Shown: positions 3,954 through 11,736 of the stretch, one piece after another
Layout of the letters: every line of letters begins with the position of its first letter
Numbering within the stretch: position 1 is the stretch's first letter
NCBI GenBank assembly: GCA_038208905.1
Contig: JBBQYG010000131.1
Location: 1-11,736, forward strand
Direction of reading: 5' to 3'
Source: Candidatus Sumerlaeia bacterium
GTDB taxonomy: Bacteria; Sumerlaeota; Sumerlaeia; SLMS01
Length of the DNA stretch: 11,736 nucleotides
Position numbers and translations under genes: made by a program
Notes under the pieces: model-generated
Told to the model about the DNA's origin: nothing
Seen by the model: the letters and a program-made list of their open reading frames with translations, nothing else
Databases searched by the model: none

Positions 3954-4214
3954 ATGGAATCGATAGGCGTACTGGAAGCGCGAATGCACTTTGGCAAACT
4001 ACTGGATCGCGTTGAACGCGGCGAGCGTGTCGCCGTAACCCGGGAGGGTCGCCATGTGGCGACAATAATTCCTGCGCACATGCAACCGGGCGAGGCCACG
4101 CTCGCCGTAGAGCGCATCCTTGACCGCAGGGAGCGGATTCGCCGTGAAGGGGGCGGACTGAGCATCTCCTCGATCCTTGCTGCTCGGGACGAGGGGCGTA
4201 AGGGAGTCTCGTAG
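3954..4214 (+). CDS. Type II antitoxin, Phd/YefM (prevent-host-death) family, 86 aa
   Basis: GAGGTG RBS; N-terminus IGVLEARMHFGKLLDRVERGERVAVTREGRHVATIIP is a typical Phd/YefM DNA-binding domain; sits directly upstream of a PIN gene. Confidence 0.9.
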   Translation: MESIGVLEARMHFGKLLDRVERGERVAVTREGRHVATIIPAHMQPGEATLAVERILDRRERIRREGGGLSISSILAARDEGRKGVS

Positions 4215-4597
4215 TCGACGCGCCGATCATGATCGCCTGGGCCGCCCCCGATGAGGTTAGCCCGAAAGCGGATGCGGTCATGCGACAGGTCATGGTGACC
4301 GGGGTAGTTGTGCCGAGCCTCCTGTTCCTCGAGATCGCCAACATACTGGTTACGAATGAGCGCAAGAACCGACTGACTTCCGAGGAAGTCGCAGGTATCG
4401 TCCTTGATCTGGGAGAACTGGCGCTCGTTATCGATCACGAAACAGCCTCACTTGCCCGCCAGCATCGCCTCACCGTCTACTATGCCGCCTATCTGGAACT
4501 TGCAAAGCGGCGTGGGTTGCCACTGGCAACGCGGGATCGCGAACTGCTGGCCTCTGCGAGAGCCGAAGGTTTGGCCGTAGAATTCGAACCCATATAG
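4202..4597 (+). pseudogene. vapC: VapC/PIN-domain toxin, probably inactivated
   Basis: Frame reads TAA-GGG-S-L-V-V-D-A-P-I-M. The first PIN strand and catalytic Asp (VVDA) lie upstream of the first ATG (4229), with no canonical start codon before them. The usual L-T-x-Y-D-A-x-Y motif reads LTVYYAAY. FLEIAN and LPLATRD are retained. PIN identity is secure; pseudogene status is inferred. Confidence 0.7.
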
Positions 4598-5918: not shown

Positions 5919-7610
5919 ATGCACGAACCGACAGAAACTCACCGCATGCATTTTGCCCTCGCGGCTCTCGTCCTCCTCGCTTTTGCCCCCTTCGCCTGGG
6001 CCGACTTGTTCTGGGACGACTATCTGGTTATTCGCCCCGATGGCCCCATCGCCGACTTGTCGAGCGTTTGGCGGACGTGGTTTGGGCGGTGCATTCTATT
6101 CCCGCCGGGATACGACTATCCCTATTACCGCCCGCTCATCGATATCTCCTTCACGCTCGAGTACGCCCTCGCGGGTGTGCATCCATTTCTGTATCACCTG
6201 ACCAACTTTGCGCTGCATCTGGCGAACGCGCTCATGGCATTCGCCATTTTGCGGACGCTATTGGGCGGAAGATTGCTTCCGGCCTTTGTCGGGGCGGGGC
6301 TTTTCGCGCTGCATCCGATTCAGTGCGAGAGCGTCCTGTGGCCGGCGGCGCGGCCTGCCGTTCTGTCGCTGTTCTTCGCCCAGATTGCGGCGCTGTGCTA
6401 CCTGCGGCTCCGGCGCGCCGGGGCATCGCCCGCGTGGATCGTCGGCGTTGTGGGCGGATTCGTGGCGGCGTTGCTGTCAAAGGAAGTTGCGGTGGCGTTG
6501 CTGCCCCCCGCGCTGCTGCTGTTTTGCGCACGGCGTAGCGAGCCGGTGCCGCGTCGCTGCTGGATAGCGGCCGCGCTGCTGGGCGTCTCGCTCGTTGCCT
6601 ATCTCGCTCTGAACCGCGCGGCGGGAGATAGCGCCTCGATGCTATCGACTGTCGGAATCGTTGCGTTTGCGGAGTTCGTGTTCCAGATATTCGGCTTCTA
6701 TCTGGCGCACCTCGCCGCTCCGTTTGGCTTCGCGCCGGCTTACCCCGTATGGGCATTTCGCGAGACGCACTTCCTGGCGATTGGCGCGGTGGGCGCAGCG
6801 ACGCTGCTTGTCGCCTTCGGGTGGGGCCTTTGGCGGCGGACACCCACCGCGGTCCTCGTTGCCGCGGGAGCGATGCTGTTTGGCGGGGGAGCAGTGCTCC
6901 CCGCCTTGGGCGGGCAGCTCACCGTGGCCGACCGATACGTGTATCAGGCGATGTGGGGTCTGGGGCTGTTGATCGCCGTTGCCGTGTGCCGCATACGCGA
7001 GACGCGCAAGTCGATCACGGCGGCGGGAGTCGGTTTGGCGCTGTTGGCGTTGCTCGCGCTCAATCAATCGGTGTGGTGGTCCTCATCGGACATGCTATGG
7101 ATGCGCACGGTGCAGGTGGCCCCCGATAGCCTGGAGGGGAACATCTATATGGGGCAATATCACGAGCGTCGCGGCGAGCTGGCAGAGGCCGCCACCTGCT
7201 ACGAACGCGCCGCATTCCCGCCGCGAGAGACCAGCGCCCCCGCGAAGTTCGACGCCGCCTTGTCGCTTGGATCCGCCCGCCTCGGCCTCGGCGAGTTCGA
7301 CGCAGCCGACCGGGCCCTTGCAATCGCGGAGGCATCGCCCCGACACGCCAACAATGCGATCGTTCGCCGTGCCATCGTCGCCTCCGCCTCCGGCAACGCA
7401 GACGCTGCGCGCGCCCACATCGCGCGATTCGCGGACTCGGGTAAGGAACTTCCGGGTATATACATCAACCTCGCGCTGTTGTCGCTCCGCATGGAAGGCG
7501 ACCTCGCCGCCGCCGCCGCGTGGTATGCCAAGGCGCGCGCCCGCGGGGCCGCGCCCAATGCGGAACTGGAAACTGCGGGCCAGAAAACGGTCGTTCCCGA
7601 AAGCCCTTGA
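5919..7610 (+). CDS. TMTC-like GT-C fold membrane glycosyltransferase with C-terminal TPR-like helices
   Basis: WDD after the first TM helix, YYRPL, YHLTNFALH, LFALHPIQCESVLW, ALLSKE, ADRYVY, then a soluble Ala-rich helical region (MGQYHERRGELAEAATCYERA). Start at ATG 5919 or 5946; the 5610 start overlaps the divergent gene. Confidence 0.82.
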   Translation: MHEPTETHRMHFALAALVLLAFAPFAWADLFWDDYLVIRPDGPIADLSSVWRTWFGRCILFPPGYDYPYYRPLIDISFTLEYALAGVHPFLYHLTNFALHLANALMAFAILRTLLGGRLLPAFVGAGLFALHPIQCESVLWPAARPAVLSLFFAQIAALCYLRLRRAGASPAWIVGVVGGFVAALLSKEVAVALLPPALLLFCARRSEPVPRRCWIAAALLGVSLVAYLALNRAAGDSASMLSTVGIVAFAEFVFQIFGFYLAHLAAPFGFAPAYPVWAFRETHFLAIGAVGAATLLVAFGWGLWRRTPTAVLVAAGAMLFGGGAVLPALGGQLTVADRYVYQAMWGLGLLIAVAVCRIRETRKSITAAGVGLALLALLALNQSVWWSSSDMLWMRTVQVAPDSLEGNIYMGQYHERRGELAEAATCYERAAFPPRETSAPAKFDAALSLGSARLGLGEFDAADRALAIAEASPRHANNAIVRRAIVASASGNADAARAHIARFADSGKELPGIYINLALLSLRMEGDLAAAAAWYAKARARGAAPNAELETAGQKTVVPESP

Positions 7611-8164: not shown

Positions 8165-9478
8165 ATGAAAAGCAGTCACCTCGTTTCGTCGCTTGCCGCC
8201 GTGCTTGCCACGGCCGCTTCCACCGGCAGGGCCGAGTGGTCCTCCATCCATCGCGACGCCGGCAACAACGCCGTCGCGCCCATCGCCGCCTCCATCACCG
8301 ACCTTACGTCGAACGCGCAGTTTTCCACCGGCCTTGCCGACATTGCCAACGCATGCCGCCCCATCGTCGCGGGTGGCAGGGTCTATGCCGTGGCGACGCA
8401 GCTCTCTCCCGAGCGCATCCGGATCAAGTCCTTCGACAAGACCAACCTAACGCCCGGACCGGAGAGCGCCGACCTCGACGCGGGCGTGTCCGTTTCCTTC
8501 GGTACCGCCTCGGCTCCGCTCGTTGTTACCGCCGATGATGCGCTGTACTTCGGCACCGGCTCCACCGTGTATAGACTTAATGCTTCCACCCTGACGCAGA
8601 CTGGCGCGGCGTGGTCCACGATGCTATCGGCCACCAACACCTCGGCCGGCGCCTACTACATGATTCTGAACTCGAGCCCCGCGGCGGGCGGAAGCTCGAT
8701 TCTGGTAAAGACGTATCCCACCGCATTTGGCGACATTGCCGGATCTCAGGTCGTGTCGCTCAGCAAGACCACCGGCGCGGTCGAGTGGTATGCCGTCACG
8801 GGCGGGCGCGGCAGCCACAGCCCCGCCTATGTTGATCTGGGCGCGAGCAAGGTCGTCATCGCGGAGCGTCAGGTTTCCAATGCGGAGATTGGCCTTCGCG
8901 CCTACGATGCCGCCTCCACGGGCGCCGCCACGCCAATCTGGACCTCCTCCTGGACCCTGACGGCCGGTGGCTTTCACGGCTTCTGGGGCGACATGCTGGT
9001 GGACGGCGGCAAGATTTACACCATCACCACCGACCTTGCGTTTCCGGGCCCCGCGGCGGGTCATTTGATCCGCGTGGACGCGGCAACGGGCACGCTCGAT
9101 TGGAGCACGCTCACCATCGGGAGCGACGTGCCCCCGGCGCTCGTGGGCGGAGAGCTGATTGTCTTCGCCGACGGCGGGAATCTGCTGCGATTCAACCCCG
9201 CCACCGGCGCCCAGATCGGGTCCACGGTCAACGTGGGCGGCAACGCCTTCCGCAACTACTTCGCCGCCACCAACGACTCGCTCTACCTGGCGCAGTCGGG
9301 TAACGGCATCCGCAAGTTCACGCTGACGGGAACACTTCAGAGCAGCAGCACGATCGCCGCCTTTGGCGGGCCAGTCTCCATCGATTCCGCCACTGGGTTC
9401 CTCTATGTGCCCACCAGCTCGGGATCGTTGAACGTCGTCACCGGAGCCAGCGGCGTCGCCGACTGGCTCGGCTACTGA
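8165..9478 (+). CDS. Secreted PQQ/BamB-like beta-propeller protein, 437 aa, downstream of the B12 riboswitch
   Basis: Sec-type signal MKSSHLVSSLAAVLATAASTGRA|EW. EWSSIHRDAGNN resembles the N-terminus of PQQ-like propellers. Trp-docking repeats LSKTTGAVEW, VDAATGTLDW, FNPATGAQI. Ser/Thr/Gly/Ala-rich; ends SGVADWLGY. Confidence 0.8.
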   Translation: MKSSHLVSSLAAVLATAASTGRAEWSSIHRDAGNNAVAPIAASITDLTSNAQFSTGLADIANACRPIVAGGRVYAVATQLSPERIRIKSFDKTNLTPGPESADLDAGVSVSFGTASAPLVVTADDALYFGTGSTVYRLNASTLTQTGAAWSTMLSATNTSAGAYYMILNSSPAAGGSSILVKTYPTAFGDIAGSQVVSLSKTTGAVEWYAVTGGRGSHSPAYVDLGASKVVIAERQVSNAEIGLRAYDAASTGAATPIWTSSWTLTAGGFHGFWGDMLVDGGKIYTITTDLAFPGPAAGHLIRVDAATGTLDWSTLTIGSDVPPALVGGELIVFADGGNLLRFNPATGAQIGSTVNVGGNAFRNYFAATNDSLYLAQSGNGIRKFTLTGTLQSSSTIAAFGGPVSIDSATGFLYVPTSSGSLNVVTGASGVADWLGY

Positions 9479-9479
9479 C

Positions 9480-10781
9480 ATGCGTATAGCAAGATATACA
9501 GCCACAGTTCTTGTGCTGCTATCCGGCGTGGCCTCCGGCGGATTCCTTCCGCCGGAGGCCGTCACCGACGGCGCAGGCCAGGATCAGCTTGCCCGCAACC
9601 CCACCAAGGCCATCGCCATCGACGTGGATGGCCGCCTGCATCTCGCCTATTGGCGTGGTGGCTCCGTGACGACCGTGGCGGAGCCCTCCTACGTGCTCTA
9701 TCGCGGTTGGTCAGTCGGCTCGGGCTGGAGCGCGGAGGAGATTGTCGATGAGTCCTTCATTGGGCCCGACCGGCTTGGGGGGCGAAGTCCTTCGCTCGCC
9801 ATCGACGCCCGCGGCGACCTCTGGCTCGCGTGGCACGACCACCGCCACAGCACGGCATTGCAAGGATACATCGACAATCTGGAGATATATGCCGACGTCC
9901 GCCTGTCAAGCGGCGGCGGATTTTCAAGTATCGATCTTCGCCTCACCACCACCGCGGCGGGCGGAGCGGGGGACAATGGCTACCTCCCGATGTTGGCCCC
10001 ACACGTCGATGGCAGCCTGAGTGTCGCGTGGTACGACTTCACTGCCGACGCCGCCGTTTCTGACATCTACCTCAAGCAGTCGGACGCCTCCGGCGCGTTC
10101 AACCTGGCGGAGCCGGTATCCTCGCTCCGAGTCACCAACAAGGACGATCGCGGCGGCTCGCCCGCATTTACCGTTGCCGACCTGTCGGTTGATGCCACGG
10201 GCAGGCGGCATCTGGCGTGGGCCACGGGGACGTCGGCTGCGGGGGCCGATATTTACTACGCCTCCGCGTCCACTGGATCCGTGGCCGCCTCGCCGCAAGC
10301 GATCTCAACAGGCACCTCCAGTTTTTTCGACACACCGCGCGTACTTGCCGCAGCCACAGGCGATGTCTGGATCTACTGGTCGGATTCATCGAATGCGAGC
10401 GACAAGGAAATCCGCCTCCGCCGACTCCGCGCGGGCGAGGCCACCTTCGATGCCGTCACCACGCCGGAACCAGCGGCAGGCTCTCAGGTCCAGCCCGCAC
10501 TCGCCATCGGTGCCGCGGGGGACATGCACTTAGCATGGATCGACGAGCCCACGAATCGCGTCGTGTATAGACACTACCCGTCGCCCGGAGCCCCCGCCGA
10601 CGGCACCGAAACCATTGCCGCGGGAACCGGTCCGCTCCAGCGCATCGCGATGACGCTGAACGCCGACGGTCGGCCCCACCTCGTCATCGAGGAAAGCCTC
10701 GGATTCACCGCGCGCCGCCTGTGGCACGCGCGCCCCACCGACGCCGAGATGGGAGTGGATGGGTGGAATCTCTACAAGTAA
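9480..10781 (+). CDS. Secreted beta-propeller-like repeat protein, 433 aa
   Basis: One nucleotide after the previous stop. Signal MRIARYTATVLVLLSGVASG. About seven blade-like repeats: AIDVDGRLHLAYW, AIDARGDLWLAW, PHVDGSLSVAW, SVDATGRRHLAW, AAATGDVWIYW, AIGAAGDMHLAW, LNADGRPHLVI. Ends MGVDGWNLYK. Confidence 0.8.
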   Translation: MRIARYTATVLVLLSGVASGGFLPPEAVTDGAGQDQLARNPTKAIAIDVDGRLHLAYWRGGSVTTVAEPSYVLYRGWSVGSGWSAEEIVDESFIGPDRLGGRSPSLAIDARGDLWLAWHDHRHSTALQGYIDNLEIYADVRLSSGGGFSSIDLRLTTTAAGGAGDNGYLPMLAPHVDGSLSVAWYDFTADAAVSDIYLKQSDASGAFNLAEPVSSLRVTNKDDRGGSPAFTVADLSVDATGRRHLAWATGTSAAGADIYYASASTGSVAASPQAISTGTSSFFDTPRVLAAATGDVWIYWSDSSNASDKEIRLRRLRAGEATFDAVTTPEPAAGSQVQPALAIGAAGDMHLAWIDEPTNRVVYRHYPSPGAPADGTETIAAGTGPLQRIAMTLNADGRPHLVIEESLGFTARRLWHARPTDAEMGVDGWNLYK

Positions 10782-11069: not shown

Positions 11070-11736
11070 ATGAAAAATTCACTCTTGATTGCCGCTGTAT
11101 GCGCCTTAAGCTCGCTCGGTTACTCACAAACCGTCACGGTGGACGGGACATCCGCCCCCCCGACCAACTATCCTACGATCACTGCCGCCCTGTTGAGCTT
11201 TGACTCGGGCACCTCGGGGCCGAATGCAGGCAATTTGGCCCCCAACGTGATTAACGTCACCACCTTTGGACCCCACGATGTTCGGATTCCCGTGCTCGGC
11301 ACGGGTGCCGTAACCCTTATCGGCGCGGCCGTTCAGGTGGTTGATGGCACCGAGGGCTTCTCGATCATCGGCGTCGGAATCAAGCCGCTTATCCTCGTCC
11401 AAAACAACGAGGTCTCCACTGGCGACGGAATCGTCATCCAGAACGGCGCCACAAACACCTTCGAGAACCTGATCATGGCGCCTTCGCCGACGGGTGCTGC
11501 GGTTGGCGACGATCTGATCAATCTGATTGGAACCAATTCCCGGCTCGACGTCATTGATTCGGTGATCACCTGCCTTCCCGCCGCATCGGCGACATACACC
11601 TCGATCGGCGATATTCCCGCGGGCTTGCTCGATGGCAGCGCCGTGGCGGACGCAACAGTGATCCGCACGGGCGACAACGGCGTTTTCGTGGGAGCCACGG
11701 GAAACACCAACGTCGTTCTCAACTTCAACAATAGCG
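11070..11736 (+). CDS. Secreted protein, probable right-handed beta-helix (pectin lyase-like) fold; truncated by the window edge
   Basis: Manually translated open frame from ATG 11070 to the end: MKNSLLIAAVCALSSLGYS|QTVTVDGTSAPPTNYPTITAAL...NVINV...GDGIVI...TFENLIM...DSVIT...GDNGVF...LNFNNS. Signal peptide plus a Y-P-T-I-x-A-A cap typical of beta-helix proteins. Absent from the ORF track because it has no stop in the window. Confidence 0.8.
   Translation, partial: MKNSLLIAAVCALSSLGYSQTVTVDGTSAPPTNYPTITAALLSFDSGTSGPNAGNLAPNVINVTTFGPHDVRIPVLGTGAVTLIGAAVQVVDGTEGFSIIGVGIKPLILVQNNEVSTGDGIVIQNGATNTFENLIMAPSPTGAAVGDDLINLIGTNSRLDVIDSVITCLPAASATYTSIGDIPAGLLDGSAVADATVIRTGDNGVFVGATGNTNVVLNFNNS

Follow-up and report, generated by a model that had tools for sequence, protein, structure and literature searches.

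About 60 unrelated exported proteins encoded by Candidatus Sumerlaeia bacterium (NCBI GenBank assembly GCA_038208905.1) share a nine-residue C-terminal tail built around a tryptophan residue, and this tail looks like an undescribed address label. The tail is carried by the products of two adjacent genes in a stretch of 11,736 nucleotides, hereafter the window, which is the whole of contig C131 (JBBQYG010000131.1) of a 4.24-Mb genome (G000) in 301 contigs, with a GC content of 64.5% and a completeness of 93.9%. Comparison with homologues and known signals indicates that the tail is very probably a portable targeting tag of approximately nine residues that acts after Sec export, has no membrane helix, lies outside the fold behind a flexible linker, and occupies the place of the signals found on homologues in other phyla. 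The tag reading follows from the enrichment of the motif at C-termini, the signal peptides of its carriers, the 53 families to which they belong, the disordered tails of the AF2 models, an invariant Trp behind a variable linker, a signal swap in a metalloprotease family, and the lack of exosortase, sortase, above-cut-off PEP-CTERM, and T9SS tail-domain matches in the genome.

A tryptophan tail at the C-termini of exported proteins

The genome-wide census was performed on a home-made set of 3220 genes called with a self-trained codon model, and signal peptides were assigned with a home-made test, a crude and lax heuristic that is positive for 36% of all genes. The pattern W-x-[LMIVWSG]-[FY] closes the protein in 25 genes and is followed by a single further residue in 24, whereas the mean for offsets 5–64 was 1.27 per offset (Poisson 8e-45). 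The looser pattern W-x-x-[FY] occurred 29 and 28 times at the two end positions, respectively, against 3.3 per offset. Among the 3220 genes, 54 encoded proteins ending in W-x-x-[FYW] with zero or one additional polar residue, and the number of carriers rose to 62 under a broader definition in which Leu, Ile, Met, or Val was also allowed in the last position; the chance expectation for a set of this size is approximately 6. Some of the carriers are chance matches, such as two cytoplasmic-looking proteins of 1066 and 507 amino acids (aa) without a signal peptide. By the crude heuristic, a signal peptide was present in 45 of the 50 complete carriers and in 1045 of the 2885 other genes (odds ratio 15.8, Fisher 6e-15).

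The sequence logo of the 45 carriers with a signal peptide showed S/T at position −5 relative to the Trp, S/D at −4, V/A at −3, N/D/G at −1, L/M at +2, and Y/F at +3. After this Y/F, the protein stopped in 24 carriers and continued for a single residue (N, E, Q, D, K, or Y) in 21, giving the consensus [ST]-[SD]-[VA]-x-[NDG]-W-x-[LM]-[YF], optionally followed by a polar residue. The original prediction, made from the letters of the window, had read the ends of the two proteins as GVADWLGY and GVDGWNLYK, and both readings are correct. In the motif G-V-x-x-W-x-x-Y that it had derived from them, the W, V/A, and Y/F positions are retained in the logo, and the Gly is not conserved. The enrichment at the C-termini of secreted proteins that it had proposed as a check was found, and the two protein bodies, described there as unrelated, indeed differ, one being a PQQ_2/BamB-like propeller and the other a sialidase/lectin-type propeller. 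The similar ends that it had mentioned on Sumerlaeota secreted proteins also exist, the tail-bearing relatives having record titles of Sumerlaeota or Sumerlaeia.

When the tail was removed, the 62 carriers fell into 53 single-linkage families. Pfam matches were obtained for 12 of the 29 carriers scanned (FG-GAP/TSP3, Golvesin_C, fn3, GHL10, F5/8-C, LTD, lactonase, and NHL), and NCBIfam matches on carriers comprised choice-of-anchor D, Q, and Z domains, an MtsC-like region, and an NF038122-type metalloprotease. The carriers were spread over 43 contigs. A single locus dedicated to the tail was considered and rejected, as no neighbouring gene family outside the pilin-like family described below recurs more than four times. 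Inspection by eye of 44 signal-peptide proteins of the genome that have a hydrophobic stretch and a basic end revealed no common motif among them.

In the structural models of the two window proteins, the tail is not part of the predicted fold. Protein 1, encoded by the upstream gene of the pair, is a Sec-exported BamB-like/PQQ-type beta-propeller carrying the tail: it has a Pfam PQQ_2 match, and its AF2 model, based on 7 sequences (mean pLDDT 76.5, pTM 0.80), gave BamB chains, which are BamB-like 8-bladed propellers, as the best Foldseek matches. Protein 2, encoded by the downstream gene, is a Sec-exported sialidase/lectin-type beta-propeller carrying the tail; it has no Pfam match, and its model, based on 12 orthologues (mean pLDDT 85.9, pTM 0.87), matched sialidase, glycoside hydrolase (GH), and lectin propellers in Foldseek. 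The bodies of the two proteins are different folds. In the models, the last strands span residues 422–425 of protein 1 and 412–417 of protein 2, and residues 428–437 and 424–433, respectively, have pLDDT values below 50 and no secondary structure. The models contradict the idea, raised in the original prediction as one possible refutation, that the tail is an integral closing strand of each propeller.

The alignment of the 12 protein 2 orthologues showed that the body ends in a conserved GDIWF, followed by a linker of 10–18 residues with insertions and deletions. W429 behind this linker is invariant, and the residue at +3 is Y in 10 orthologues, W in one, and R in one. The orthologues of protein 1 have the tails SVRDFLLY, RVRDWEGLR, RVYHWEVWE, GVADWLVLE, SVSDWLMLD, and SVSNWGVLGW, in which S/R-V-x-D-W is kept, the final aromatic residue is often Leu, and Phe replaces Trp in one.

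Exchange with known sorting signals and distribution across phyla

To compare the ends of homologous proteins, 55 complete genes from named genomes encoding NF038122-like metalloproteases were classified with a home-made classifier. Among the five homologues with Sumerlaeota or Sumerlaeia titles, three end in W-x-x-Y plus 0–2 residues, one has a variant (VWLME), and one is tail-less; a homologue titled Candidatus Omnitrophota (isolate HK-STAS-OLB16-2) ends in NWFAYE. None of the other 49 complete homologues has a W tail, and 27 of them have a hydrophobic stretch and a basic end, including plain PEP-CTERM ends. In one aligned pair, AVPEPS followed by a transmembrane helix (TM) and RRRR stands opposite the Sumerlaeota end AVPDWNLY (...TAVPDWNLY), directly before the stop codon. 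One further homologue in the protein database, P0055, has a precomputed match to PF18962, the tail domain of the type IX secretion system (T9SS). As judged from these alignments and classified ends, the tail fills the place that is occupied in homologues from other phyla by PEP-CTERM-like, Cys-type, or other membrane-anchor ends or by a T9SS domain. Among the homologues L046, L047, L048, L054, L055, and L103, which are labelled Hydrogenedentes or Nitrospir*, we also observed ends with LPVAG or LPAAG followed by a hydrophobic stretch and RKRK, and others with (GE)n linkers followed by Cys and a membrane segment, both being additional C-terminal signals in this place.

In the genome of the window, which is 93.9% complete, exosortase (PF09721) and sortase (PF04203) had 0 matches each; rhombosortase, archaeosortase, and myxosortase were not searched. 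PEP-CTERM (PF07589) gave nothing above the cut-off in this genome, and the T9SS tail domain PF18962 had no match in the genome or on the 29 carriers scanned. Exosortase PF09721 was found in 9 of 75 Sumerlaeota genomes, namely all seven of family f15 (G044–G050) and two of family f7 (G060 and G062). The idea that exosortase and the tail are alternatives among Sumerlaeota was rejected, since f15 has exosortase yet is rich in tails (271 versus 90), and no anticorrelation was seen.

The tail shares several features with known sorting signals. Like the LPXTG/sortase, PEP-CTERM/exosortase, GlyGly-CTERM/rhombosortase, MYXO-CTERM/myxosortase, and PGF-CTERM/archaeosortase systems, it is a short end signature found on many unrelated Sec-exported proteins per genome. 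It is also lineage-confined, located behind a linker, swapped with such signals in homologues, and present on choice-of-anchor proteins, as they are. However, catalogued short C-terminal sorting signals are tripartite, consisting of a motif, a membrane helix, and a basic cluster, according to the available part of the text of 10.1101/2023.06.07.544157. Unlike in these signals, no hydrophobic segment follows the motif, as all 45 signal-peptide carriers stop 0–1 residue past the [YF] (0–2 in relatives), and there is no Arg/Lys cluster, the last residue being Y/F or N/E/Q/D/Y, with K in 2 of the 45. No exosortase, sortase, or above-cut-off PEP-CTERM match accompanies the tail in the genome, which also differs from the tripartite systems. 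Because the protein stops after the motif, with neither a hydrophobic segment nor a basic cluster, it cannot be retained in the membrane for an enzyme that lies within or is bound to that membrane.

The T9SS C-terminal domain (CTD; PF18962, TIGR04183) resembles the tail in that it is a C-terminal signal, has no membrane helix, and occurs on folded periplasmic cargo from many families, but it is a folded beta-sandwich of approximately 75–80 residues, whereas the tail comprises approximately nine disordered residues. The original prediction had set the two ends apart from LPXTG, PEP-CTERM, and GlyGly-CTERM signals by their lack of a membrane helix and basic end, and from the T9SS CTD by their shortness. 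Both distinctions stand, the former for all 45 signal-peptide carriers and the latter in a genome that has no PF18962 match. Its suggestion that the signal is uncatalogued agrees with the searches, which covered neither InterPro nor subscription journals: no Pfam or NCBIfam model lies on the tail among 31 carriers scanned, and no description of the tail was found by full-text searching of the literature. The words 'C-terminal' and 'pili' do not occur in the available text of the Sumerlaeota genomics paper PMC8092238, nor do 'Sumerlaeota', 'BRC1', 'tryptophan', or 'Trp' in that of 10.1101/2023.06.07.544157, which treats myxosortases and short C-terminal sorting signals. The original proposal, a short and hitherto undescribed tag at the C-terminus that serves export, anchoring, or docking, is supported as far as the tag itself is concerned. 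In two phyla, about 60 proteins per genome bear this tag, and as neither a membrane helix nor a basic end is part of it, its recognition must rest on a different mechanism. The tag also provides an immediate annotation rule for the exported and surface proteome of Sumerlaeota, which otherwise consists mostly of hypothetical proteins.

The distribution of the tail was examined with the DNA pattern W-x-x-[FY]-[polar]-TAA/TGA, which captures a subset of tails, using the same pattern reversed as the control. In the 75 Sumerlaeota genomes, the pattern and the control were found 2744 and 1471 times, respectively, and the pattern exceeded the control in 68 genomes; enrichment was weak in families f6, f8, and f12. 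In the four outgroup genomes, labelled Hydrogenedentes, Phycisphaerales, Corallococcus, and Akkermansiaceae, the respective counts were 31 and 45, with an excess in none of the four. A set of 26 genomes from the Hydrogenedentes-labelled phylum gave 779 and 660, with an excess in 16. In 31 genomes of the phylum of G079 (the HK-STAS-OLB16-2 record), which is distinct from Sumerlaeota, the counts were 2552 and 1518, with an excess in all 31. A stricter pattern was found 17, 22, 18, 8, 5, and 7 times in G000, G041, G105, G079, G029, and G074, against 0, 5, 6, 1, 1, and 6 for the control, respectively. Of 12 places in G079 that were picked for motif-like codons, a selection that makes the sample biased, 11 lie at the ends of open frames of at least 285 aa, and the upstream contexts fit the motif (e.g., SSVDGWELYQ and ASVDDWDLYE). 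By these pattern counts, the tail is present across Sumerlaeota and a second phylum and absent from the outgroups tested. The Hydrogenedentes-labelled genome G119 was considered as a further tail-bearing genome on account of its loose counts (110 versus 61), but its strict counts were 7 versus 4 and it has no pilin match at E 1e-20, and its excess was treated as noise.

Pilin-like genes and the possible route of tagged proteins

One gene family, that of GspG/PilA-type pilin-like proteins, recurs ten times within three genes of carriers. These proteins begin like prepilins and share a conserved motif, YDPTNGT-x-S-x-GD, at the C-terminus, and a hidden Markov model (HMM) identified 40 of their genes in the genome of the window. 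Six carriers directly adjoin pilin-like genes, compared with 1.39 expected, a number reached in 4 of 2000 permutations; within a distance of two genes, the number was nine, compared with 2.6 expected, which was reached in 1 of 2000 permutations. The bodies of the six pilin-adjacent carriers are mutually unrelated. As a side observation, all six (on contigs C2, C34, C44, C48, C49, and C248) have Met at +2 (W-x-M-[FY]), a residue found there in 12 of the 45 signal-peptide carriers overall (hypergeometric 1.1e-4), and Leu is the usual residue at this position in C44-carrier orthologues from other genomes.

The C44 pair has orthologues in 13 of 41 relatives, and the pilin gene lies directly upstream of the carrier gene on the same strand in 11 of the 13; the remaining two loci are cut at a contig end or represented by a fragment match only. 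The same pilin-then-carrier pair is present in G079, which belongs to the other phylum. This conserved pair is a concrete test pair for in vitro work that needs no cultured host. In the ESM Atlas, the C44 carrier lies near CBM96-type clusters (score 0.93, 153 shared features), which we regard as a lead only.

Components of pilus-like machinery were also found in the genome. On contig C12 (28991–39732, minus strand), genes for PilM, PilO, a 307-aa protein, an STN-type secretin, a 153-aa protein, and a 399-aa protein are followed by the gene for a 1000-aa carrier (Golvesin_C and fn3), which closes the run. In total, the genome has four secretins and 16 T2SSE-type ATPase matches. The pilin model was matched over its full length at least 19–44 times in each of the 75 Sumerlaeota genomes (34–273 first-look candidates), these counts being taken among the best 40 candidates per genome and hence saturating and not usable as copy numbers, and 78 times in G079. 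In the four tail-less outgroup genomes, the model matched the N-terminal helix only, and in five genomes of the Hydrogenedentes-labelled phylum it had no match at E 1e-20. In Sumerlaeota and G079, this pilin-like family has grown to dozens of paralogues in each genome.

These observations suggest a route in which the carrier would be exported by Sec and its free tail would dock, in the periplasm, on a GspG/PilA-type pilin-like protein. The docked cargo could then be carried out through the secretin by a type II secretion system (T2SS) or a type IV pilus-like machine; instead of being released, it might be held on the pilus-like fibre. Docking on pilus-like secretion machinery is, tentatively, the most likely route in view of gene neighbourhood and co-distribution, and it is favoured because carriers adjoin pilin-like genes above chance and because one such pair is conserved across both phyla.

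A precedent for docking on a pilin is provided by the type IVb pilus substrate TcpF, whose disordered N-terminal export signal hooks onto the minor pilin TcpB, with Tyr5 named as a critical residue, and by CofJ, which behaves likewise with CofB, according to the available parts of PMC9565799 and PMC10120004. As described there, these proteins resemble the carriers in having a short disordered terminal peptide with an aromatic residue on a Sec-exported folded protein, and a cargo gene beside a pilin gene. In contrast to TcpF and CofJ, where the signal binds a tip minor pilin and each system has one cargo in these same texts, about 60 cargos carry the tail at the C-terminus, and the pilins encoded nearby are paralogues of the GspG/PilA-like type. 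The T2SS likewise handles folded periplasmic proteins by means of a secretin and a pseudopilus, with which the four secretins, 16 T2SSE-type ATPase matches, and approximately 40 pilin-like genes of this genome are in line. Substrate recognition by the T2SS is called 'not well defined' in the available text of PMC10120004, and a shared linear C-terminal motif is unlike anything reported for T2SS substrates in the literature found, as far as its text was available. It is conceivable, although doubtful, that the tail represents the first general linear secretion signal of a T2SS or type IV pilus-like system, present on approximately 2% of proteins in two uncultured phyla, with pilin paralogues acting as cargo adaptors. 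Such adaptors, if real, would explain why both phyla have dozens of these pilins. A true link to pilins would also bear on how secretin-based machines choose folded cargo and on the purpose of large families of pilin-like paralogues.

Several points weigh against pilin docking. Only 6 of the 62 carriers adjoin any of the 40 pilin-like genes, most members of both groups being unpaired, and the C248 pair is kept in 3 of 10 loci. The co-distribution of the pilin subfamily and the tail comprises two positive phyla and nine negative genomes from few lineages, that is, few independent contrasts, and G074 combines pilin matches with a weak enrichment of the tail (80 versus 56; strict, 7 versus 6). 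In the TcpF case, a single cargo has its signal at the N-terminus, whereas the tail is C-terminal and found on approximately 2% of the proteome. The home-made gene set and the signal-peptide test that flags 36% of all genes count on the same side. Finally, the membrane-anchor signals on homologues elsewhere argue for surface retention as much as for release.

Surface retention could be achieved non-covalently if the aromatic tail, with V, W, and Y/F spaced three residues apart, inserted in or bound the envelope (outer-membrane lipid, lipopolysaccharide (LPS), or S-layer) after export by any route. This explanation, which we consider rather unlikely, is consistent with the membrane-anchoring signals at the same place in homologues from other phyla and with the flexible, exposed tails of both models. 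The carriers are, moreover, typical surface cargo, including a giant FG-GAP/TSP3 protein, lectin-like domains, glycosidases, and choice-of-anchor domains. However, it leaves the excess of pilin neighbours and the cross-phylum pair unexplained, and no candidate for a receptor emerged; as a membrane anchor, nine residues containing a single Trp would be weak, and about half of the tails finish with a charged or polar residue.

It is improbable that the tail is the substrate motif of a sorting enzyme, that is, a periplasmic or outer-membrane peptidase or transpeptidase that would remove it and link the protein to lipid or glycan, replacing the exosortase/PEP-CTERM system without membrane retention. 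The position of the tail at the PEP-CTERM site of the metalloprotease homologues (...TAVPDWNLY versus ...AVPEPS+TM+RR) agrees with such an enzyme, as do the 66 of 75 Sumerlaeota genomes without an exosortase match alongside the 68 of 75 with tail enrichment. Nevertheless, the catalogued signals are tripartite in the available text of 10.1101/2023.06.07.544157, and the tail has no membrane helix or basic cluster. No enzyme candidate was found in the carrier neighbourhoods, and family f15 has exosortase and many tails together.

DegS/Prc-type PDZ proteases read aromatic C-termini, and the beta-signal of outer-membrane proteins (OMPs) is formed by the final strand of a transmembrane beta-barrel, in which hydrophobic residues alternate and the terminal residue is aromatic. 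We give little credence to either of two further roles of the tail, namely that of a ligand for a periplasmic protein reading C-termini, for instance a PDZ-domain protease, and that of an OMP beta-signal mimic engaging an Omp85-type translocator. As would suit a reader, the tail is free and flexible and has Y/F as its last or next to last residue, but its aromatic residue stands at a variable distance from the carboxylate (no extra residue in 24 carriers, one in 21, and up to two in relatives), which fits poorly with carboxylate-anchored PDZ binding; in addition, such readers are near-universal, whereas the tail is lineage-confined. With regard to the beta-signal, the tail is not a strand, its hydrophobic positions (−6, −3, −1, and 0) do not alternate, and both carriers with models are soluble propellers rather than barrels. 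The absence of any signalling role, with the tail being a fold end-cap or a product of chance convergence, is hardly credible given that 53 unrelated families share the tail, that it lies beyond the fold in both models, and that it is fixed at the C-terminus and conserved while the linker varies.

Features of the window

The features of the window are summarized in Table 1. The genes of protein 1 and protein 2 are located on the same strand with one base between them.

Table 1. Coordinates of the genes, signal peptides, and tails in the window
Feature	Position	Strand	Description
Phd/YefM-type antitoxin gene	3954..4214	+	
122-aa gene	4229..4597	+	No Pfam match
Multi-pass membrane protein	5922..7607	+	C-terminal TPR region; sole Pfam match, weak TPR_14
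Gene of protein 1	8165..9478	+	ORF, 437 aa from ATG 8165 (alternative start GTG 8132); stop 9476–9478
Protein 1 signal peptide	8165..8236	+	MKSSHLVSSLAAVLATAASTGRAE; without lipobox Cys; residues 5–42 with pLDDT <50
Protein 1 tail	9452..9475	+	GVADWLGY after linker TGAS; read from sequence
Gene of protein 2	9480..10781	+	ORF, 433 aa
Protein 2 signal peptide	9480..9539	+	MRIARYTATVLVLLSGVASG; residues 1–19 with pLDDT <50
Protein 2 tail	10752..10778	+	GVDGWNLYK after variable linker (TDAEM precedes); read from sequence
Third signal-peptide gene, 5' part	11070..11735	+	ORF leaves the contig end; C-terminus off contig

Only seven homologues of protein 2 were found in the protein database, all with at least 38% identity and one named Candidatus Sumerlaeaceae, and the family seems to be confined to the Sumerlaeota lineage. 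No anchor swap is visible among these seven homologues for protein 2 itself. Residues 233–310 of protein 2 match NCBIfam NF053835 (PDIAV motif-containing lipoprotein, PDIAV_lipo) with 48 bits, the cut-off being 90.

For the third signal-peptide gene, four distant homologues (31–38% identity) have visible ends. Three of them are W-containing variants (GSWFAIR, GSWFAIH, and NEWMLLNEE), and one has none.

The multi-pass membrane protein with the TPR region is encoded directly upstream of the two tail genes. The tail as a site of Trp C-mannosylation by this protein was considered and rejected; the pairing was seen once, and the family of the protein was not identified. Farther upstream, the 122-aa gene that follows the Phd/YefM-type antitoxin gene probably encodes its toxin partner.

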